This document shows, piece by piece, positions 3,892-13,441 of a stretch of DNA of 64,000 nt. The stretch comes from Archaeoglobales archaeon (GTDB lineage Archaea > Halobacteriota > Archaeoglobi > Archaeoglobales > Archaeoglobaceae). Location of the stretch: NCBI GenBank assembly GCA_030055525.1, contig JASFYJ010000001.1:26616-90615 (forward strand), written 5' to 3'. Below the pieces are notes generated by a model. That model did not search any database. It was given only the letters and a program-made list of their open reading frames with translations, and was not told the origin of the DNA. Within the stretch, counting starts at the first letter, position 1. Each line of letters opens with the position of its first letter. Made by a program: the position numbers and the translations under genes.

Positions 3892-4854
3892 TTAAGATTT
3901 TAGCAGAACACTTTTGAAAACAACGATTAAGGTGGTTTGGTAATTTTCTGTGTCAATCATTGCCATCGGTATAAATGCCTTTTCGCATGTACAAACGCAG
4001 GGACTAATACCATAGCAATTGTGGCAATTTTCAGCTATTAGTGTTGTGTTCAAAAGCTCGAATCTGTCAAAGAACCTGCACCATGCACTCTGGTGTTCAG
4101 TGTCTCTTACCAAAACGTACGCATAATCGAAGTTTTTCCATTGATGATTGCTTCCTATATTCAAGTCATCGATCTTCGAAAATATGTTATCGAGTTCCTC
4201 AACTGTGAATTTGAATCTCCCCGAACCGCCTATCGAAAGATTTCCTTGCAAAGAAGGTATTGTGATCACGAGATACTTGCTTGTTCCAGCAGTAGTATTT
4301 AGGAGTATTCTTGGCTCATAGAGGAGCTTTGAATATTCCGCATTTGAATACTTCGAAAAAACCGCTCCAGCTTCCATCGATAAAAGCCAGTCCTTGTATT
4401 CATATCTCAGTTCTCCGGCTGTTGTGTTTAAAATGCAGGCAGTTCTGTTAAGCCCGACATTACAACTAGTAGTGTTGGGATAGATTAGTCCGGTCGAGAG
4501 ATTGAGACAGTAAAGCCTAAATTTTTCCCCTGAAGAAGTAATTTCATTGCAATCATCCTGCGAAATTGTGTTAGAGCTATTAACAAAAGCTACTATGAAT
4601 TCGGGGCCCTTACTTAAAAACATGTTACCTCCCTGAAGTTCTATTTCAGCAACTTGCGAAGGAACATCTCCGAAGGCTACAGAGTAAACTATGTACTGTA
4701 TCCTTTTGAAGCTCTTTTCAAGGCTCTGCGATAGAACGCTCCTCTTCATATCCTCAACCATGTTGTTTACCTGCACAAAAACGATTGCAAGCACTGCCAT
4801 CACGATGCCGAAGATGTAGATGTAGCCTGTTACTTCGGAAACAGCGTTCCTCAT
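3892..4854 (-). CDS. class III signal peptide (archaeal type IV pilin-like) protein F, 320 aa
   Basis: The N-terminus MRNA|VSEVTGYIYIFGIVMAVLAIVFVQV is a short charged leader followed by a hydrophobic helix. There are at least 8 N-X-S/T sequons. The start overlaps the upstream stop by 1 nt. Confidence 0.7.
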   Translation of the reverse strand: MRNAVSEVTGYIYIFGIVMAVLAIVFVQVNNMVEDMKRSVLSQSLEKSFKRIQYIVYSVAFGDVPSQVAEIELQGGNMFLSKGPEFIVAFVNSSNTISQDDCNEITSSGEKFRLYCLNLSTGLIYPNTTSCNVGLNRTACILNTTAGELRYEYKDWLLSMEAGAVFSKYSNAEYSKLLYEPRILLNTTAGTSKYLVITIPSLQGNLSIGGSGRFKFTVEELDNIFSKIDDLNIGSNHQWKNFDYAYVLVRDTEHQSAWCRFFDRFELLNTTLIAENCHNCYGISPCVCTCEKAFIPMAMIDTENYQTTLIVVFKSVLLKS

Positions 4855-5546
4855 CAGCTCACCTCTATTGAGACAATTAAAATACTTATTTCTCGCGGCA
4901 AAGCTGTTTCAACGACTATTTTTCGATCGCTACAATCGCTGTTCGCTAAAATACTCGAATCCATCTTTTCAATCGCCTTCTTCCATAGCTCGCAGAAGTC
5001 GCCTTCAATCTCAAGCTTCGTTGCGTTGAATTGCTCTGTTGCATTGTATCTCATGCTCATCGTCACCCTGCTACCGCCGGCGGAGAATTTGCCGATGAAG
5101 TTGTAGAAGGTAAAGTAAACAGTATCGTTTGTTGCAATAACCGAAGGCTCGGAAATTGGAATCGGGATAACCTCGCCATAGGCCTTCTCGAAAATTCCAG
5201 ATTCCAGAGTTACGATTCTACCGCTAACTTCGATGTTGAGGTTTTGCAGTTGTCTCTTTACATTTACACTGCCCAAATTAAAAGATAAATTAAGTCCAGC
5301 TGAGGTATAGATGCTACCCATGTTTAACTGGATAGTTTTAATCGTCGCTACCTCGCTACCGAACTTCATTCTCTCAACAAGCTCTTTTATTTCCGCCATC
5401 GTCTTTACGGCGTTTCTGTAATTGATGTTGTCTATGCCGGAAGATATCGTCGGATAGGACATCATGTAGATAATTCCGGCTGTAAAAACCATCACAAAGA
5501 TTACCAGCATCGCTCCAACGGTCTCGGATACGGCTTTTGAATTCAT
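4854..5546 (-). CDS. class III signal peptide (archaeal Pilin_N-type) protein E, 230 aa
   Basis: The N-terminus MNSKA|VSETVGAMLVIFVMVFTAGIIYMM resembles the archaeal pilin N-terminal consensus (K/R-A-V-S-x-V-I/G...). Confidence 0.75.
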   Translation of the reverse strand: MNSKAVSETVGAMLVIFVMVFTAGIIYMMSYPTISSGIDNINYRNAVKTMAEIKELVERMKFGSEVATIKTIQLNMGSIYTSAGLNLSFNLGSVNVKRQLQNLNIEVSGRIVTLESGIFEKAYGEVIPIPISEPSVIATNDTVYFTFYNFIGKFSAGGSRVTMSMRYNATEQFNATKLEIEGDFCELWKKAIEKMDSSILANSDCSDRKIVVETALPREISILIVSIEVS

Positions 5547-5548
5547 AA

Positions 5549-8443
5549 TTACCTCAGGATTATTCTAGCATCCTCGCCCGAAACAACGTTAACCTTGCTC
5601 TGCACGAATCCACAATCTTCTATGGGTATAATTATATTATCCAAGGGTTCGCCCCTGTTGTTAAGGGCAACATACTGAATGAAAGAGTTGCTGTTGTCGT
5701 TTATTTCGTATTCGCCGTAGGGAGCATCATCCTTAACTTTAAGCCTAATCACGAGGTCTATGACTTCATCTTTCTGGATTGAGGTTATGTTAAGCCTTAT
5801 TTCCGTCTTTGTATCGCGTTCAATTATCTCGGGTTGTGAAACTGAGGAATTTAATTTGTTCGAAGTAGCAGTAACACCTAGAACCTTAAAAGGTGATAAA
5901 AATGAAACGTTGAGGCTTTCTACAACTGAGATATTAGTTGCGGCTATCTGGAAAGCGTTGAAAATTGTTCTGTAAGCTTCAACAAGTTCCTCGCTTGTAG
6001 TGGCGAAGAAGTAGCATGGCTTGTTGTTGTCTGGGCGTATAGAGGCGATATCTCTAAGGAGTTGCTGTCCATCCCCACTTATATCCGTGCTAAAGCCGAT
6101 TGTGCAGATTGAAACGTTAAATCCGTTTACTTTTACTGTATTGTTGTTCTTTATGTAATTCGCTATACATCGGGCTTGACCAAACGCACCGAGTGACGTT
6201 GGACATCCGTAATTACTTCCTTCGCTCACAACTTGATTGGCATCTCCATCTGTTAACAATATCATTAGAGGTCTTAACCCCTGAATACAGGTTGTGCAGT
6301 TGTTTCCAGATTCGTTCCAGATCGGATAAACTTTAGAACCCCAATACAACCCACCAGCAATGTTTGTAGCGCTAAGAGGTTTAAAGTTAATAATGCTTAC
6401 ATTAACTGCAGATTTATCATTGGTCATGTATTTCAGAACACTTGAAGACGCATTCACCACAACTCTTTGAGCGCTCGTTGAAAAATTGGTCAAACCTACA
6501 AAATCCTTTTGTCCCAGCATGCCATTGAACGTTGTTCCAGCAAGCTTTGCTGCGTCAATACGCATCACAAACACCGTTGCGTTAAAAGTCACTGAGTCCT
6601 TGGTTGTTGGCACAACAACGAACTTATAAGTTCCGGGGTTCGGGTATGGTATAAATGCGTCAGCGCTCATGTTAAAGTACTCTCTTGAAATATCCCTATT
6701 GTCCTGTGCCACATACCAAGCGGTAGAATTCCAGTATGCATATCGTGTGCAACCACTCCAAGACCCTAGTATGCACCATCTTATTACTGTCTTGTTATTG
6801 CCCTTCACCAGAAACTCCTTTGTGTTATCTGCCTTCACAAACCAGACGTTCAACTTGTTATCGTTAAAGCTATTATATCCACAAGTGGAAAAGTTATATC
6901 GCCAGTAGTAATTGCCCTCAGAAGGTATAAATTTCCAATTGCTCCAGATTCTTTCACTCCACTCTGGCAGATTCTGAACACCTACAACTGCCAAAAATCC
7001 ATAACTACCGCCAGAGGGCAACGGTGGTAATTCAAATTCGACTTCTTGTTTGTTCACATATTGATAAGTTTTGTTCAGAATCTCAGTATTCTGGTGTTTA
7101 ACAACGATTGTCAGGTTTATCTGCTCTGGAGCTCTTGCAACAACTTCGATCGTGTAATTTCCAGCGGGAGCATTGTTTTGTGAATAATATTTTCCAATTT
7201 TTCCTCCAGAATTATAATCGCCGCCTGAGTCAACTCCGTTAACGTAGAGTTTAACGAAAGATTCATCGTAGCCAACGTTATACCACGGACAATTCCCTGT
7301 CGCATTACTGCATGCTTTACACGCTGAATTTGAATACCAACTCGTAAGCCTATCGCTCGTATAAGCCCAGATCTCAAGTTTCCCTGAGGAGTTCAGCGTA
7401 ACTGTTTCCTTTATAACATTCGGATTTACTGTAAAACTGTAATTCTTAAAGATCGTTGGCAAGATCATGCTCCCTGAGACGTCGATGACATGCACAACGC
7501 TTAAATTCGTTGAATTTAGCAGGAAACCTCTACCTTCAATGCGAAGATTGACATCAAATACATCTCCGGGGGAAACAATCCTTGGCTCGATCCATTTCTT
7601 GCAAACCAGATATGGATTCGATTCTTCCGGTTTCAGAGAAACGAGAAGTTTATTTGCATCGCTTGCATTGCAGTGAGGTAAATCGACAATTTCAGCCCTG
7701 ATCCATGCGTAACATTCGTAATCGTTGCTTGTATCATTTCTTTTCACGCATTGATTTTTTACTTCATTTTCATCGATCAATTTTAGTGCTACTATCTTAT
7801 CGATATCTGAACCGGAAATAACACTACCGTTCCAGAGCGTTACGTTCCACCGTATGCTTTTTGTGATCTCATCTTTATTGACAAAGCTAACCTTTAATCC
7901 GAAGTTATCTTCAATAGCAACGCTGCTCTGAATAAACTCTATTCTTGGTTTTGGAATGAACGGGCACTCTATGGATTTTTCGTACTCCACCTTCGGTTTC
8001 TCTTCTTTCTTTTCAGCTTCTACCTGAAAACTTATAATTTCTCCTCCAGTTCCTACAGATATTACTCCTGATTTTGATATAAATTTCGCTAAACCCAAGC
8101 CACTAGCTGCAGAGTATTTTCCCCCCTCGACTAATATGTAAGCAACATCTCCCGTTTTATTTAGCTTTGCAGAATATCCCAGCTTGCCTATCGTCGATGG
8201 CATCTCTATTTTCGTGCTAATTGATCCGTTATCTGGAAGAATTAGGACGTAGTCTGTGTAGATTGCAGAAATCTGCGATGCGACATCTGCAAAGTTGTTC
8301 TCCACAACCCTTGAAAGCTGAACCTCGCTTAGAGTATCGTGAATCTGAAGACTCATCACAACTACAAAAACGCTCAGAATTCCCATCAGAATCAGATATT
8401 CCACAAGCAAAGATACCCCTTTATCAGCACCCATCCCCATCAC
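5549..8443 (-). CDS. pilin-like vWA (MIDAS) domain protein D, 964 aa, putative adhesin / TadG-like
   Basis: The N-terminus is GADKG|VSLLVEYLILMGILSVFVVVMSL. MIDAS DVSGSM lies at aa 321-326 (nt 7466-7483, verified by back-translation). SATNIAGGL lies at about aa 691-699 and ILLTDGDAN at aa 728-736. A hand count gives about 30 N-X-S/T sequons. Confidence 0.8.
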   Translation of the reverse strand: MMGMGADKGVSLLVEYLILMGILSVFVVVMSLQIHDTLSEVQLSRVVENNFADVASQISAIYTDYVLILPDNGSISTKIEMPSTIGKLGYSAKLNKTGDVAYILVEGGKYSAASGLGLAKFISKSGVISVGTGGEIISFQVEAEKKEEKPKVEYEKSIECPFIPKPRIEFIQSSVAIEDNFGLKVSFVNKDEITKSIRWNVTLWNGSVISGSDIDKIVALKLIDENEVKNQCVKRNDTSNDYECYAWIRAEIVDLPHCNASDANKLLVSLKPEESNPYLVCKKWIEPRIVSPGDVFDVNLRIEGRGFLLNSTNLSVVHVIDVSGSMILPTIFKNYSFTVNPNVIKETVTLNSSGKLEIWAYTSDRLTSWYSNSACKACSNATGNCPWYNVGYDESFVKLYVNGVDSGGDYNSGGKIGKYYSQNNAPAGNYTIEVVARAPEQINLTIVVKHQNTEILNKTYQYVNKQEVEFELPPLPSGGSYGFLAVVGVQNLPEWSERIWSNWKFIPSEGNYYWRYNFSTCGYNSFNDNKLNVWFVKADNTKEFLVKGNNKTVIRWCILGSWSGCTRYAYWNSTAWYVAQDNRDISREYFNMSADAFIPYPNPGTYKFVVVPTTKDSVTFNATVFVMRIDAAKLAGTTFNGMLGQKDFVGLTNFSTSAQRVVVNASSSVLKYMTNDKSAVNVSIINFKPLSATNIAGGLYWGSKVYPIWNESGNNCTTCIQGLRPLMILLTDGDANQVVSEGSNYGCPTSLGAFGQARCIANYIKNNNTVKVNGFNVSICTIGFSTDISGDGQQLLRDIASIRPDNNKPCYFFATTSEELVEAYRTIFNAFQIAATNISVVESLNVSFLSPFKVLGVTATSNKLNSSVSQPEIIERDTKTEIRLNITSIQKDEVIDLVIRLKVKDDAPYGEYEINDNSNSFIQYVALNNRGEPLDNIIIPIEDCGFVQSKVNVVSGEDARIILR

Positions 8444-8735
8444 AGAAATCTACCTCCGCATTCTTGAATTCAACTTTGTTGATGCTGACATAACAAACCC
8501 AACCATTTTTGGCACAAAGTACCTTCAATTGTTCCTGAGCTTCAGAATTTATGTTTCTACTATCTCTTATTTCTATCAAATTTCTTAACTCCTCCTTCGG
8601 AAAAGCAAGCATTGTTCTTGAACTTTCAATTCCAGCAATTATATTCTGAGCATATATATATGAGAGGGAAAGAATTATTACAACCACCGCTGCAGCGAAC
8701 AACAGGATCATCTGGCCCCTATTATTCATCTCCAT
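8424..8735 (-). CDS. class III signal peptide (pilin-like) protein C, 103 aa
   Basis: The N-terminus MEMNNRG|QMILLFAAAVVVIILSLSYIYA has an R-G|Q prepilin-type site. It overlaps both neighbouring genes. Confidence 0.65.
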   Translation of the reverse strand: MEMNNRGQMILLFAAAVVVIILSLSYIYAQNIIAGIESSRTMLAFPKEELRNLIEIRDSRNINSEAQEQLKVLCAKNGWVCYVSINKVEFKNAEVDFCDGDGC

Positions 8736-9205
8736 AACGTCAATCTCACCTCCACAACTTTGGCATTAGAACAGGGGGAATTTGAGGGGTTAGCGATAAC
8801 AAATCTGCTAGCCCTTACAGCATTTGGAGTTGGATCTTTGTTAAAACCCGCAATGTTTAGCACCTCAATTTCACTGCCATTGACGCAAAGTATCTCAATT
8901 CTTCCGTGAGCCGTTAGGCTGCTCAATACGAGGGATAGATTACTGCTGAACTCTGCCGGAGCTATGCATGTGTTGTTATTGCAGCTAAGATTTGCTATCA
9001 TACCTATTAAAGATGCGTTTCCGCCTTGCGGGCTATCGAGAACCCTTAAAATGTCGTAGCCCAGTTGCTTCAACTGTACATTCTCAAATTCGCTCCATGA
9101 AGGTGCTAAGACTACAGTGCTTTGAAAAATTGTGTAAGTTGCTATCAAAAGTAAAAGCGACGCCGCAACGCCTTCGAGCGTGAAAGTTTGGGCTTTCAAG
9201 TCCAT
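8726..9205 (-). CDS. class III signal peptide (pilin-like) protein B, 159 aa
   Basis: The N-terminus MDLKA|QTFTLEGVAASLLLLIATYTIF contains an FTLE motif reminiscent of bacterial type IV pilins. Confidence 0.7.
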   Translation of the reverse strand: MDLKAQTFTLEGVAASLLLLIATYTIFQSTVVLAPSWSEFENVQLKQLGYDILRVLDSPQGGNASLIGMIANLSCNNNTCIAPAEFSSNLSLVLSSLTAHGRIEILCVNGSEIEVLNIAGFNKDPTPNAVRASRFVIANPSNSPCSNAKVVEVRLTLWR

Positions 9206-9804
9206 ATTCTAACCTCCAGCTTTGCAACACATCGATTTGCAATTAGATCGCAGTTATCAACAGATCTGTCGAGGTAAACGATTCTTTCAAACTTAATTAC
9301 CTGCGCACTCTTCTCTTGATCTCCGTGGTTTAAAGTTACTTCAGAATTGTTCGTTAAAATGGCACCAGATAAGTTTTTCAGAGATACGCTCATCCTGTAG
9401 ACAATCGGGGATCCGAAAGGTGATAAATTTAGACCTAAATACTTCTTTACCTCTTCTCTACAGGTCGTGTTGTTGAGAAGTTCAGCAAACTTTTCGACTT
9501 TAGTAAGGTTGAGGTTGTTGTAGCTCTTCCCACTACCAGCATTAAATACTATTAAACCTGGCCGAAATTCAACGCTTTTGCAGTTTGTTAAGTTTACTTC
9601 ACTCTCCCAATCCGAAGGATAACCTGGATCTTCGGCCAGCAGAGCAGCAATCCTATAAGCCTGATGGGCAAGGTTTATCTCATTTCTAACATCAGCAAAA
9701 ACGCCCGGCAAAAAGCTCGCTACAAAGATGAACGTGAACAGGAATATCGATAAGCCTACAAGCAGATCTAAACTCAACTTCCCTTTATTTACCGATTCAT
9801 CCAT
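9196..9804 (-). CDS. class III signal peptide (pilin-like) protein A, 202 aa, first gene of the operon
   Basis: The N-terminus is MDESVNKG|KLSLDLLVGLSIFLFTFIFVASFL. It carries several N-X-S/T sequons. Confidence 0.6.
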   Translation of the reverse strand: MDESVNKGKLSLDLLVGLSIFLFTFIFVASFLPGVFADVRNEINLAHQAYRIAALLAEDPGYPSDWESEVNLTNCKSVEFRPGLIVFNAGSGKSYNNLNLTKVEKFAELLNNTTCREEVKKYLGLNLSPFGSPIVYRMSVSLKNLSGAILTNNSEVTLNHGDQEKSAQVIKFERIVYLDRSVDNCDLIANRCVAKLEVRIWT

Positions 9805-9827
9805 TAATAATAGTTATGTGGGCAAAG

Positions 9828-9835
9828 TTATAAAT
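9828..9835 (-). promoter_or_regulatory. TATA box of the pilin-like operon (leaderless transcript predicted)
   Basis: The minus strand reads ATTTATAA, centred about 27 nt upstream of the ATG at 9804. It is flanked by two copies of TTTGCCCA (plus-strand TGGGCAAA at 9819-9826 and 9854-9861). Confidence 0.45.
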
Positions 9836-9863
9836 TTTTTCCAAAAAGGTTTTTGGGCAAATT

Positions 9864-11228
9864 TTAAATCCTCTCGTAATCATCTTCAATTCTCTCGATG
9901 TCATCTTCATGCAGATATTCGCCGATCTGGATTTCGATTATCTCCAAATCAACCTTTCCAGGGTTCTCTATTCTGTGCAAAACACCTATGGGTATGAAAG
10001 TGCTCTCTCCAGGCCTTAGCAGAACTTCTTTACCATCGTAAACTATCTTTGCGGTACCTTTGACAACAACCCAGTGTTCACTTCTATGATAATGTCTCTG
10101 CAAACTAAGCCTTTTTCCGGGCTTCACTGTTATCCTCTTGATCTTGTATCTGTCACCCTCCTCAAGCACAGTATAACTTCCCCAAGGTCTGTAGGCTGTT
10201 CTGTGGACTATAGCTCTAACGTCTTTCCTCTCTTCAAGCATTTTAAAGATGTTTTTTACTTTCTGGGTTTCTCCAAGCTTTGAAATTAGGATTGCATCGT
10301 CAGTGTCTATAACCACGAGATCCTCTACTCCGACAAGTGCCGTAAGCCTTGAGGCAATAATCAAGTTATTTCTAGATTCTAAAGTTATCGCTTCACCCTT
10401 TATGGCATTTTTATCTCCATTTTTATTCATTACCTCGTATATCGAATCAAAACTGCCTAAATCGTTCCAGTAAGTTTCAAGCGGAACTACAGCAACTTTG
10501 GAAGATCTTTCAAGTAGTCCATAGTCTATAGATATCTCCGGAACCATTTCGTAGGCTTTTTCGAGATCATTGGACTCGAAAGCTTCCGCAACTTCAGGTG
10601 CTTTTTCTTTGACTTCATCAATAAAAATTTTTGAGTCAAACAAAAACATTCCACTGTTCCAAAAACATCCTAAATTTAAATATTCTCTAGCTTTCTCTTC
10701 GGTTGGCTTCTCTTTGAATTCTCTCACTTCATAAGCTTCCTCAAGCTTTTTGCCCGGTAAGATGTATCCGTAGCCTGTATGGGGTTTTGTGGGTTTTACG
10801 CCGAAAGTGATCAGATATTTATCTGAAAGCTCCTCAGCGATTTTAAAAGCTTTTAAGTAACTCTCATTCACGTCAATTAAATGATCTGAAGGTAGGACAG
10901 CAACTTTTCCATTGCCAATTATTTTAATTCCATAATAAATTGCTGGCAGAGTGTTCTTCACTTTTGGTTCGAGAATTATATTTTCTTTTGGTATTTTAAA
11001 GCTGGCATCTTCGATATCATCTAATATCCGGAACTTGTACTCTTTGTTCGCAACTATGTATACTTCTTCGGGTTTCGAAAAAAGTAAGGCCCTTCTTAAA
11101 GTTTTTTGAAACAGACTCTCACCAAAAAGTCTTATGAATTGTTTAGGCATCTGCTCTCTGCTTAGGGGCCATAACCTTGTCCCCTTCCCACCGGCGAGGA
11201 TCAGCGTTTTCACAAAAAAGATCTGCAC
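9864..11228 (-). CDS. manC: mannose-1-phosphate guanylyltransferase / mannose-6-phosphate isomerase (cupin C-terminus)
   Basis: LILAGGKGTRLWPLS nucleotidyltransferase motif. The C-terminal cupin region reads LSLQRHYHRSEHWVVVKG. Confidence 0.85.
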   Translation of the reverse strand: MQIFFVKTLILAGGKGTRLWPLSREQMPKQFIRLFGESLFQKTLRRALLFSKPEEVYIVANKEYKFRILDDIEDASFKIPKENIILEPKVKNTLPAIYYGIKIIGNGKVAVLPSDHLIDVNESYLKAFKIAEELSDKYLITFGVKPTKPHTGYGYILPGKKLEEAYEVREFKEKPTEEKAREYLNLGCFWNSGMFLFDSKIFIDEVKEKAPEVAEAFESNDLEKAYEMVPEISIDYGLLERSSKVAVVPLETYWNDLGSFDSIYEVMNKNGDKNAIKGEAITLESRNNLIIASRLTALVGVEDLVVIDTDDAILISKLGETQKVKNIFKMLEERKDVRAIVHRTAYRPWGSYTVLEEGDRYKIKRITVKPGKRLSLQRHYHRSEHWVVVKGTAKIVYDGKEVLLRPGESTFIPIGVLHRIENPGKVDLEIIEIQIGEYLHEDDIERIEDDYERI

Positions 11229-11263
11229 TCTACTTTTTAATCTTACTGAACCAACAGATTTTA

Positions 11264-12208
11264 CTACCTGAGACTTCTTATCAGCGATGTTACGCTGAAG
11301 TTTACTGTTGCACTTCTCTTTCTTTCAATCAAAGCAATCTTTGGTAATTTTAATAGGGCTGAAAGTTTTTTGTTCCTCTGCAAATCTCTAACAAACTCGT
11401 GCTCTACTTCGATCCATTTAAAATTTTTCAAGACCCTCTTTTCATATTCCTCCAGCTCTGAGTTGTTTATGCAATCAGCAAGTATTTTGGCGCATTCGAG
11501 AGATGGAGCATTTCCTTCACCAAAACCACTAACGCAGCCTATAGCCTCTCCAACACCAAAGATGTTTTTGTAAACTATCGGCTTGCATTTCGATGGAGGG
11601 AGCATCCTTATCTTAGCTTTACAATAGCAAGATTTCTCAGAATAGCTAAAGCCGTAAAATTTTCTCATCTCTTCTACCAACTCCGCCGCCCTCTCGTAAT
11701 TCAAATCTCCCGCTCCTATGTGCCATCTTTTATCTCCAAGGGGAAAGGCCCAAGCGTAACCCGTTCTCCTTCCGTAGGCGTAGATGTTTTCATCGAAGTC
11801 GTGTTTTTCTATAGATTGAACGGTAAAATATATTGAATCCATCTCTATATTTGGAAGTAAAGCTCTTGAGGTACCTGTAGCATCAACTTGTATGTCTGCC
11901 TCTACATCTTTAAATTCGATCTCCTGCCATAGATCGCTCAAAAGTTTTTTTCTGTCAAAGGTCACGATATTTTTGTTTTTCATTTCAATTCCGTTTGCAA
12001 TAGCAAGTTTTGGTTTTGAAAGAACGTAATCGTCGAATTCTATTCCAACAAGATTGTACAGCTCTTTGGCTTGCTTATAGGCAATACCCCAAGCGCACCT
12101 GCAGTCAACAGCTTTGGATATCTCTTTAACTCCAACTTCTGCATGATCTCTGAGCAGCATGAATAGGTAACTTCCACCGATTCCTGCGCCATATATCTGA
12201 ACTCGCAT
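11264..12208 (-). CDS. FAD/NAD(P)-binding oxidoreductase, geranylgeranyl-reductase-like (short form)
   Basis: N-terminal YGAGIGGS dinucleotide fold. The GVGEAIGCVSGFGEGN motif resembles GDAAGxxxPxxGEG. Confidence 0.5.
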   Translation of the reverse strand: MRVQIYGAGIGGSYLFMLLRDHAEVGVKEISKAVDCRCAWGIAYKQAKELYNLVGIEFDDYVLSKPKLAIANGIEMKNKNIVTFDRKKLLSDLWQEIEFKDVEADIQVDATGTSRALLPNIEMDSIYFTVQSIEKHDFDENIYAYGRRTGYAWAFPLGDKRWHIGAGDLNYERAAELVEEMRKFYGFSYSEKSCYCKAKIRMLPPSKCKPIVYKNIFGVGEAIGCVSGFGEGNAPSLECAKILADCINNSELEEYEKRVLKNFKWIEVEHEFVRDLQRNKKLSALLKLPKIALIERKRSATVNFSVTSLIRSLR

Positions 12209-12342
12209 GAATGAAATTTTCTACAGTATATATTTTTGTTGCTTAAATGCGCCGATACACTTTCTCTATCTTATGGTAGGTCCTCAATACAACAGCACTA
12301 ATATACCATTACTGTTATTTGAAGTTCGCTGAAACTTTGATT

Positions 12343-13011
12343 ATGCGAAAACCGAAGGCTGTGGCAATCGATCTAGATGGCACCTTGACCAACAAAAAAA
12401 GGGCCTTGAACTGTAAAGCTATAGAAGCTCTGAGAAAATTGAAAATACCTGTTGTATTATCTACAGGTAACGCTGTATGCTTTGCAAGGGCCGCTGCAAA
12501 GCTCATAGGTGTTTCAGATATAGTCATAGCTGAAAACGGCGGTGTTGTTAGGTTCGAATATGATGGTGAAGATTTTGTACTTGGTGACAAGATGAAATGT
12601 GTAGATGCTTTGAGGGAGTTGGAAAAACACTTCAAAATAGAATTGCTGGATTTTAATGAAAGAAAGTCGGAAGTTTGTTTGAGAAGAACTTTTGATTTTG
12701 AGAAGGCAAAAGAAACTCTAAAAGGATTACCTGTGAAGCTGTTAGATTCGGGCTTCGCTTACCACGTCGTGGATGAAAAGGTTAGTAAAGGTAGAGCTTT
12801 AAAATTTGTTGCTGAAAAAATAGGTTTAGAAGTTGAAGATTTTGTTGCAATTGGCGATTCTCATAATGATATAGAGCTCCTCGAAGTTGCAGGGATAGGA
12901 GTTGCTGTTGCAAATGCAGATTTAAGGCTGAAAAAAATTGCGCACATCGTTACACCTTCGCCCGATGGAGACGGTGTTGTTGAAGCTCTGAAACTTTTAA
13001 ATCTGCTGTAA
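12343..13011 (+). CDS. HAD-IIB phosphatase (archaeal phosphoglycolate phosphatase type)
   Basis: AIDLDGTLT, STGN and GDSHNDIEL motifs. I prefer the ATG at 12343 over the tracker's TTG at 12319. Confidence 0.7.
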   Translation: MRKPKAVAIDLDGTLTNKKRALNCKAIEALRKLKIPVVLSTGNAVCFARAAAKLIGVSDIVIAENGGVVRFEYDGEDFVLGDKMKCVDALRELEKHFKIELLDFNERKSEVCLRRTFDFEKAKETLKGLPVKLLDSGFAYHVVDEKVSKGRALKFVAEKIGLEVEDFVAIGDSHNDIELLEVAGIGVAVANADLRLKKIAHIVTPSPDGDGVVEALKLLNLL

Positions 13012-13441
13012 GTTTTTTGGGCTGAGCAACTTCGCCAAGGTACAGTTTCACAGCCTCTTCAACAAGTGCACGTATTGAGTAGTTTTCACCGCTTTCTCTT
13101 CTCAGCTTTAAATTTGGACAAAATACATCTACGTAGACATAATACTCTTCTTTTTCGTACTCAAAAAGTGCATCTTCCTCTCCTCTCTTATACACTGAGA
13201 AAGGATAAATTTTGCATGCAAAAGGTTTCAGCTTATCTTGTAAGATACAGAGCCTATCAATTTGGAATGGGCAACTTCCTCTGATTTTTCTTATGAAAAA
13301 TCTTCCATTTTTCTCTTCAACAAAGCCCGTTTCTTTGAGTTTCAAGTATTCATAAGCGCTTAATCTTACTCTATATTCAGAGCAGCACTTTCCGCAAGCG
13401 TTACAGTGCCATGAAAAGACCTTCCTCCATGGCACCTTCAT
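12950..13441 (-). CDS. YkgJ-family (UPF0153) cysteine-cluster protein
   Basis: CNACGKCC ... GSCPF ... CILQ ... ACKIYPF pattern. The 3' end overlaps the convergent phosphatase gene by 62 nt. Confidence 0.65.
   Translation of the reverse strand: MKVPWRKVFSWHCNACGKCCSEYRVRLSAYEYLKLKETGFVEEKNGRFFIRKIRGSCPFQIDRLCILQDKLKPFACKIYPFSVYKRGEEDALFEYEKEEYYVYVDVFCPNLKLRRESGENYSIRALVEEAVKLYLGEVAQPKKLTADLKVSELQQHRLHRAKV

Follow-up and report, generated by a model that had tools for sequence, protein, structure and literature searches.

An open reading frame of 964 codons at positions 5549-8443 (minus strand) of a 64,000-nucleotide stretch of Archaeoglobales DNA (contig JASFYJ010000001.1, positions 26,616 to 90,615; G+C content about 40%), hereafter called the window, was found to encode a modular, pilin-like protein of 964 residues whose von Willebrand factor A (vWA) domain is cut in two at its metal ion-dependent adhesion site (MIDAS). 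The MIDAS loop with the DxSxS motif is located at residues 321-325, helix α1 starts 301 residues downstream at residue 628, and the MIDAS residues Thr693 and Asp732 follow. It is rather probable that the protein is a minor-pilin-like component of an archaeal type IV pilus of the PilB/TadC type, mounted at the tip and binding a ligand, with the insert lying beside the metal site because the chain leaves and re-enters at the MIDAS loop. As a role, that of a metal-dependent adhesin of the pilus tip is predicted as the most likely one. The gene was delimited with the list of open reading frames and a homologue search, and its product is 100% identical to a hypothetical protein (P0001) from the metagenome-assembled genome (MAG) Archaeoglobales QFX40_00210.

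One vWA Domain in Two Pieces

The first-pass annotation had drawn attention to positions 5954-7483, which correspond to residues 321-830, and the motifs it named there were recovered, one of them with a corrected end. The motif VVHVIDVSGSM occupies residues 316-326 (nucleotides 7466-7498, with DVSGSM at 7466-7483), RIDAAKLAGTTFNGML residues 628-643, PLSATNIAGGL residues 689-699, and MILLTDGDAN residues 727-736; DFVGLTNFSTSA was present as described but spans residues 647-658, its end having been given as residue 659. Strand β1 and the MIDAS loop (Asp321, Ser323, Ser325, and Met326) form the first piece of the domain, residues 314-326 (7466-7504, minus strand, as are all features of this gene), which was delimited by conservation, by the AlphaFold2 model, and by split-match and deletion tests. 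The remainder of the fold, α1-α6 and β2-β6, comprises residues 628-830 (5954-6562), as judged from the order of elements in AlphaFold2, from Foldseek, and from Pfam matches in homologues. The codons of Thr693 and Asp732 are at nucleotides 6365-6367 and 6248-6250, respectively. Exactly 301 residues (327-627, nucleotides 6563-7465) separate the two pieces, and the MIDAS residues DxSxS ... T ... D occur in the correct vWA order. The pattern D-x-[ST]-x-[ST] recurs only once more in the protein, at residue 916.

The homologue search returned 29 proteins, mostly from Archaeoglobaceae/Archaeoglobales where named, of which 22 were aligned. Asp321, Ser323, Ser325, Met326, and Thr693 were invariant, and Asp732 nearly so, down to 30% identity, and all aligned family members carried an insert of about 255-307 residues. 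The conservation of the MIDAS residues across the alignment indicates that the split exceeds chance. The native window protein gave no vWA match at E <= 1 in Pfam and none in NCBIfam, and a single-protein sequence search against PDB returned nothing relevant. The missing vWA match made independent tests of the one-domain claim necessary.

The homologues themselves were informative in this respect. Their Pfam VWA_2 or VWA matches begin at profile position 8-36 and therefore lack β1 and DxSxS. VWA_2 was matched at E <= 0.01 by 13 of the 22 family members, with a score of 45 bits for P0028 (above the 27-bit cut-off), and P0022 showed a separate weak vWA-TerF match on the DxSxS piece. A family profile was then searched against 1.8 billion representative proteins, followed by tabulation of the domains with hmmsearch. 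DVSGSM corresponds to positions 317-322 of this profile and Arg628 to position 598, about 275 positions apart. The two vWA pieces could be paired in 73 proteins, 42 of which have at most 15 residues between DxSxS-M and α1. P0168, for example, matched profile positions 261-325 with its residues 23-87 and positions 598-704 with its residues 88-176. The same two-piece match was shown by the solved vWA domain of ITIH4; a profile search of PDB yielded weak ITIH4 and α2δ vWA matches only. When the insert was deleted in silico (residues 300-326 joined to residues 628-840), the construct matched Pfam VWA at E = 3.3e-4 over profile positions 2-168 of 174 and VWA_2 from position 1, whereas residues 628-840 alone gave no Pfam vWA match at E <= 1. 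P0021, P0028, and P0007 likewise gained vWA score upon deletion of the insertion in silico.

The full-length AlphaFold2 model was calculated from 22 sequences, with a mean predicted local distance difference test score (pLDDT) of 78 and a predicted template modeling score (pTM) of 0.63. A strand at residues 314-321 and, beyond the insert, helix 628-642, strands 648-654 and 658-660, helices 677-685 and 695-703, strand 724-731, helix 749-765, strand 778-784, helix 790-799, strand 811-814, and helix 817-830 fit the Rossmann-like vWA fold (β1-α1-β2-β3-α2-α3-β4-α4-β5-α5-β6-α6). Foldseek with the whole model retrieved the vWA protein 4fx5 (3e-10), SpaC (5e-9), GBS104 (4e-7), and PilB (8e-5), as well as integrins and α2δ.

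Alternatively, DVSGSM might be a fortuitous motif in an upstream β-sandwich, with residues 618-830 forming a vWA domain of their own whose metal site is degenerate. The strand at residues 618-627 leads directly into α1 and could in principle serve as β1. This arrangement is nevertheless extremely improbable: the C-terminal piece is matched by Pfam only after addition of residues 300-326, and then from position 1-2; canonical vWA proteins align contiguously to both pieces; DxSxS-M does not vary in the family even though overall identity falls to 30%; and all insert-bearing relatives keep DxSxS upstream, with strong VWA matches (E down to 1.7e-26) that start at position 15 or later. The first-pass annotation had proposed a single vWA domain interrupted between the DxSxS loop and α1, and this is borne out by the split matches, the gain upon deletion, and the conservation of the MIDAS. 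In the search with the family hidden Markov model (HMM), canonical proteins align to both pieces contiguously, and ITIH4 gives a two-piece match of the same kind. Its counter-scenario, a separate and complete vWA domain beside a chance DVSGSM, did not occur, as is evident from the same results together with the truncated Pfam matches.

The Insertion Is Predicted to Fold into Two β-Modules

Module A of the insertion (residues 327-450, nucleotides 7094-7465) is all-β and ends in the hairpin PAGNYTIEVVARAPEQINLTIVV. Module B (residues 451-627, nucleotides 6563-7093) is all-β and Trp/Tyr-rich, and its conserved terminal hairpin NPGTYKFVVVPTTKDSVTFNATVFV runs straight into α1 of the vWA domain. Both were delimited by AlphaFold2, alignment, and a hairpin HMM. 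Two "module ends" had been placed at residues 426-448 and 602-626 by the first-pass annotation, and they were found there. Modeled alone (16 sequences), the insertion reached a pLDDT of 89.6 and a pTM of 0.88 and formed two all-β modules at residues 327-450 and 453-627, with values mostly of 89-98 in module A. In the full-length model, most of residues 327-550 and 590-627 were at 81-95, and three 10-residue blocks were at 67-78. Low confidence within the insert was limited to a loop in module B, with a pLDDT of < 50 at residues 551-570 and 584-588. The predicted folding into two modules of β-sandwich type was thus obtained both for the insertion alone and in the full-length context, and the disorder that the first-pass annotation had considered as a contrary outcome did not appear. 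A disordered linker was rejected as an interpretation of the insert on account of the high pLDDT in both models.

A segment of about 25 extra residues (VIRWCILGSWSGCTRYAYWNST...) in module B (residues ~551-575, nucleotides ~6719-6793, minus strand) is shared by the window protein with P0002 and P0003 and is missing from the other aligned sequences. This lineage-specific segment coincides with the low-confidence loop of the insert.

When PDB and BFVD were searched with the isolated insertion in Foldseek, weak, generic matches to tandem Ig/CnaB-like domains alone were returned (template modeling score <= 0.25; EbpB at 7e-4 in PDB), which place it in no fold family, and no close solved relative was found. 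The full-length profile search gave no strong insertion-only matches outside the family; no separate insertion-only search was made. The insert had been described as rich in Trp, Tyr, Asn, and Cys. Trp accounts for 4.0% of the insert against 0.9% elsewhere in the protein and Tyr for 7.6% against 3.0%, so that both are enriched; Asn is only mildly so (11.0% vs 7.7%), and Cys is not (2.0% vs 1.8%). An internal duplication had been proposed as well, and for this the evidence is weak. An HMM of the hairpin preceding α1, built from 25 proteins, matched residues 596-626 with an independent E-value of 2e-10 and residues 420-443 with a marginal one of 4e-3, and two or three hairpin copies were detected in the relatives P0049, P0051, and P0052. 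In a profile-profile comparison of the insert halves, only the 30 columns already noticed in the first-pass annotation aligned, with a probability of 4.5% (P = 0.009). Modules A and B are of the same general β-sandwich type and possibly of common origin, and the sequences give a weak indication of module duplication.

Two CxxC pairs were noticed. CKAC (residues 375-378, nucleotides 7310-7321) is in a Cys-bearing loop of module A, with Cys375 nearly invariant and Cys378 less conserved. CTTC (residues 716-719, nucleotides 6287-6298) is in the vWA domain, and both Cys716 and Cys719 are nearly invariant. The pairs may form disulfides or a metal site. Furthermore, most other aligned members have a Cys-rich loop (C..C...C....WC) after the MIDAS Asp (alignment columns 860-895), which is absent from the window protein, where its site is at residues ~737-755 (nucleotides ~6179-6235, minus strand), and from P0002. 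In the alignment, this looks like a lineage-specific loss of a Cys-rich loop beside the metal site.

The Same Site Carries Inserts in Relatives

The proteins related to the family profile fell into three classes according to the distance between DxSxS-M and α1. The canonical class (n = 42) has at most 15 residues and no insert. In the single-module class (n = 14), the distance is 99-123 residues; all members except the pilin-like P0037 are without a pilin module, and most start with Sec-type signal peptides. The multi-module class (n = 11, after removal of two mis-paired multi-vWA proteins) has 168-788 residues and consists entirely of pilin-like (DUF7266) relatives. Over both insert classes, the pilin-like relatives carry inserts of 116-788 residues at this site.

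At least 13 Sec-secreted vWA proteins have an insert of ~100-120 residues at exactly the same site; P0061, P0067, P0075, P0097, P0098, P0106, P0114, P0160, P0161, and P0163 are examples. They share the insertion point (DxSGSM-x-[WR]Y ... PxGxYxVxA ... [KR]-I-D-A-A-K), a last hairpin before α1 that is homologous to that of the window protein, and the same surrounding DUF11-type sandwich. They differ in having one module and Sec signal peptides, whereas the window protein has two modules and a pilin module. The strong Pfam VWA matches of P0061, P0067, P0075, P0114, and others start at profile position 15-25, and for this reason standard annotation truncates the vWA domain in this set. A literature search found no published function for the Sec-secreted single-module proteins.

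The largest insert, 788 residues with PA14 and NPCBM_assoc domains, was seen in P0049, encoded at positions 9001-13185 of locus L003 from a Methanocellales MAG. P0051 carries a PPC domain in its insert at the same site. By sequence comparison, the stretch between DxSxS and α1 is a recurrent place for the addition of β-sandwich or lectin modules.

Architecture of the Remaining Protein

The leader and pilin module (residues 1-130, nucleotides 8054-8443) were recognized by Pfam, AlphaFold2, and the leader motif. The N terminus, MMGMGADKG|VSLLVEYLILMGILSVFVVVM, resembles a class III signal (MMGMGADKG|VSLLVEY...), with a short polar leader ending in Gly followed by ~20 hydrophobic residues. AlphaFold2 predicted a helix of 63 residues (6-68) and then a β-sheet (residues 73-129), an arrangement like that of pilins, with modest confidence (pLDDT 40-73). 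Pfam DUF7266 matched the window protein at E = 0.001 and 19.3 bits (cut-off 27.6) and its relatives at E values of 4.5e-8 to 3.6e-10.

The pilin module is followed by a β-sandwich spacer domain with conserved Cys residues (residues 159-270, nucleotides 7634-7969; alignment and AlphaFold2). Residues 141-275, which contain it, gave no Pfam match; the position is occupied by a PKD domain in P0044, P0049, and P0051. Residues 271-313 (7505-7633) were assigned as the opening strands of a DUF11-type β-sandwich enclosing the vWA domain, based on the profile alignment and Pfam matches in relatives, and residues 831-964 (5552-5953) as the C-terminal β-sandwich completing it, based on AlphaFold2 and on profile and Pfam matches in relatives. 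In the relatives, Pfam reports a BatD/DUF11-like match before the vWA domain, and the DUF11 matches after it begin at profile position 25-31. In canonical relatives, the stretch ahead of the vWA domain corresponds to positions ~263-316 of the family profile (residues ~270-320). A chimera of residues 266-314 and 831-964 of the window protein was without a Pfam match, and it is for this reason that the relatives alone are the source for the nesting. Judging from their sequences, a DUF11-type β-sandwich seems to enclose the vWA domain. A comparable nesting of a MIDAS domain has been described for the Bdellovibrio adhesin Bd0875 (PMC11003981).

The protein contains 30 N-glycosylation sequons (N-x-S/T) compared with 11.9 +/- 3.0 expected from 2000 shuffles; in the other five proteins encoded in its gene cassette (see below), 0-8 sequons were counted. 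The sequon count suggests heavy N-glycosylation at the cell surface. An assembly or frameshift artefact was considered and rejected, as the same uninterrupted architecture was present in about 29 homologues from independent assemblies.

The vWA Gene Belongs to a Cassette of Pilin-like Genes

The vWA gene is the fourth of six tightly packed genes (3892-9804, minus strand), and the other five all encode small pilin-like proteins. Gene 1 (9196-9804, 202 residues) belongs to DUF7287 (Pfam E = 1.4e-13) and gene 2 (8726-9205, 159 residues) to DUF7288 (E = 1.2e-10), both with conserved synteny in L001-L004; gene 3 (8424-8735, 103 residues, weak DUF7261) runs 20 nucleotides into the start of the vWA gene. 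Downstream are gene 5 (4854-5546, 230 residues; E = 2.3e-11) and gene 6 (3892-4854, 320 residues; E = 7.5e-13), both of DUF7289, the latter with a weak match to archaeal Pilin_N (E = 0.009). Adjoining reading frames overlap by 1-20 nucleotides, and one pair is separated by 2 nucleotides. The arrangement of the genes is consistent with one translationally coupled operon. All six proteins begin with a short polar leader ending in Gly or Ala and continue with a hydrophobic stretch. A literature search on the DUF names found no papers.

The cassette order is kept in Archaeoglobus neptunius (L001), in two Archaeoglobales-type contigs (L002 and L004), and in the Methanocellales MAG (L003), where P0049 sits in the same DUF7287-DUF7288-x-vWA-DUF7289 cassette. 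In L002, two genes directly precede the cassette: one encodes an ATPase of the T2SSE family that matches PilB3_C, and the other a platform protein of the T2SSF/TadC type. T2SSE and T2SSF genes are absent from L001, L003, and L004. Pilin sets encoded apart from their ATPase have been reported for euryarchaea (PMC4858521).

These data bear on the proposal that the protein is not part of a pilus at all and that its N-terminal hydrophobic helix is an uncleaved membrane anchor, making it a surface adhesin or receptor that spans the S-layer. The window holds neither an ATPase nor a platform gene, the DUF7266 match stays below the Pfam cut-off, and the size is very large for a pilin, all of which would suit such an anchor. 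We nevertheless regard it as distinctly unlikely. The leader K-G|V-S-L-L with ~20 hydrophobic residues, the long helix, and the β-sheet are those of pilins; the gene is always found among five other pilin-like genes, which in L002 come right after T2SSE and T2SSF; and PilB and CpaL are modular pilins of comparable size from bacteria.

Two further genes were noted upstream of the cassette. A gene for a bifunctional mannose-1-phosphate guanylyltransferase/mannose-6-phosphate isomerase (9864-11228, minus strand) directly precedes the cassette on the same strand. This ManC-like gene may have a part in glycosylating the cassette proteins, but in L001-L004 it does not adjoin the cassette. Upstream of it in the window, an open reading frame of 314 residues (11264-12208, minus strand) gave no Pfam match at E <= 0.001.

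Comparison with Known vWA Adhesins and Pilins

The closest parallel in overall design is CpaL, the TadG orthologue of the Tad/type IVc pili of Caulobacter crescentus (PMC11870444 / PMC12607857). CpaL consists of a pilin module and a vWA domain of residues 148-203 and 384-626 that is split by two six-stranded β-barrels, with the MIDAS residues Asp160, Thr162, Ser164, Thr470, and Asp515 (PMC11870444). Both proteins thus have an N-terminal pilin-like module fused to a MIDAS vWA domain that is split by two consecutive β-rich modules; in both, the split region is without a strong structural match in PDB, the gene lies beside small minor pilin genes, and SpaC is named as the top structural analogue. 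The CpaL insert, however, starts ~39 residues past DxTxS (Asp160-Ser164) and is described as projecting away from the MIDAS, whereas that of the window protein starts one residue after DxSxS, before α1. According to the published CpaL residue ranges, a different loop was probably used in an independent insertion event. The window protein is, moreover, archaeal with a pilin module of the DUF7266 family, and no PF13400 or NCBIfam TadG match was obtained at E <= 1 in Pfam and NCBIfam.

In Streptococcus sanguinis, the modular type IV pilin PilB (PDB 7ba2) bears a MIDAS vWA module for adhesion on its pilin module and has been proposed to lie at the pilus tip (PMC8179133). Its vWA domain is continuous, without a large insert after DxSxS; its pilin module is of the bacterial IPR012902 type; and it has no enclosing DUF11-type sandwich. 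In RrgA and GBS104 (PDB 2WW8 and 3txa) and, by structural similarity, SpaC (6m3y/6m48), two arms inserted in the vWA domain flank the MIDAS (PMC7893114). As is predicted for the window protein, a pilus-tip vWA/MIDAS domain is nested in Ig-like domains, and the inserted arms are the most variable part, but these arms are hairpin or loop extensions rather than two complete β-sandwich domains, and the proteins belong to a different pilus system, being anchored by sortase via LPXTG. The window protein ends in ...VSGEDARIILR, with neither an LPXTG motif nor a C-terminal membrane anchor. Membership in PilY1/PilC was not indicated either: the C terminus is a β-sandwich in AlphaFold2, and no C-terminal PilY1 β-propeller match was found in Pfam, nor a PilY1 match in NCBIfam. 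Bd0875 has an extra "cap" projecting from its MIDAS domain (PMC11003981), yet Bd0875 and Bd1483 are lipoproteins and not pilins, and the cap is far smaller than the present insert (PMC11003981).

The first-pass annotation had likened the protein to pilus-associated vWA proteins such as TadG, which is apt in view of the pilin-like N terminus, the pilin-like cassette, and the ATPase and platform neighbors in L002. It had also called the adhesin architecture unusual. This was overstated, given CpaL (PMC11870444), RrgA/GBS104 (PMC7893114), Bd0875 (PMC11003981), and the Sec-secreted vWA proteins with an insert at the identical site. The architecture is an uncharacterised archaeal variant of a pilus-adhesin design already recognized in bacteria.

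The likeness to CpaL also lends weight to a different function of the same architecture, namely that it would serve mainly in the priming of pilus assembly or in mechanosensing: the protein and the five small pilins would jointly start or cap the filament, as has been proposed for TadG/CpaL and PilY1, and the vWA domain and insert would be force-sensitive. CpaL, which likewise combines a pilin module and a split vWA domain, influences both piliation and surface sensing in Caulobacter (PMC11870444). The five small pilin-like cassette proteins resemble minor-pilin initiation complexes, and in the chain the insert directly links the MIDAS loop to α1. Movement of these two elements switches integrin I domains. 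We consider priming or mechanosensing as the main role possible but doubtful. The protein is not a member of the TadG family by sequence, such a role is compatible with adhesion too, and the variable, lectin-containing inserts of relatives are better suited to ligand recognition than to a conserved role in assembly.

Discussion

As a tip adhesin, the protein would undergo cleavage by prepilin peptidase and take its place at the end of the pilus alongside the five small pilin-like products of its operon. A ligand would be bound through the MIDAS metal, and the insert beside the metal site would offer a platform rich in Trp and Tyr that defines or widens ligand specificity, with glycans as possible ligands. 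Across relatives, the site would act as a hot-spot for the addition or exchange of β-sandwich or lectin modules. Sequences and predicted models make this functional reading plausible. The hints of ligand presentation by the insert, which the first-pass annotation had proposed, are limited to its aromatic richness and to the PA14 lectin at the same site in P0049.

Several points weigh against it. Homology and chain connectivity, rather than model coordinates, are the basis on which β1 (residues 314-321) is paired with the other strands of the vWA sheet and the insert is placed with respect to the metal site. The deletion construct scored 21.4 bits, under the Pfam vWA gathering cut-off of 23.8. 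Some relatives have a degenerate MIDAS (in P0032, DKSEK without the Asp of TDG), and because of these few cases metal binding may be dispensable in places and not essential in every relative. No ATPase or platform gene was found in the window by tblastn with the L002 proteins, and Foldseek against PDB and BFVD gave no lectin-like match for the insertion of the window protein itself. For the family members as a whole, the adhesin role is a prediction from sequences and models.

A more far-reaching idea is that the loop between the MIDAS and α1 is an evolvable "specificity and force" socket of archaeal pilus-tip adhesins, where whole β-sandwich or lectin modules would be exchanged (116-788 residues across relatives) and where ligand capture by the insert, or pilus tension on it, could gate the metal site. 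Direct gating is conceivable because the insert is wired to the elements that switch a vWA domain between its closed and open states; we nonetheless hold the idea to be unlikely as it stands. If it is true, the MIDAS would be under mechanical or allosteric control in a way that sets it apart from the MIDAS of integrins and of CpaL.

Little is known, to our knowledge, about the adhesins of type IV pili in archaea. In the main census of their pilus systems, vWA proteins figure only as regulators or through an analogy with TadG (PMC4858521). For Archaeoglobales and Methanocellales, the family described here supplies a concrete and testable candidate tip adhesin, and it indicates that the design of a pilin module plus vWA domain, known from bacterial PilB and CpaL/TadG, also exists in archaea. 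The insertion hot-spot at the MIDAS loop is previously undescribed and is used by many Sec-secreted vWA proteins as well. Because it splits the vWA domain, standard HMMs miss or truncate it, and domain annotation pipelines under-call vWA in insert-bearing proteins.

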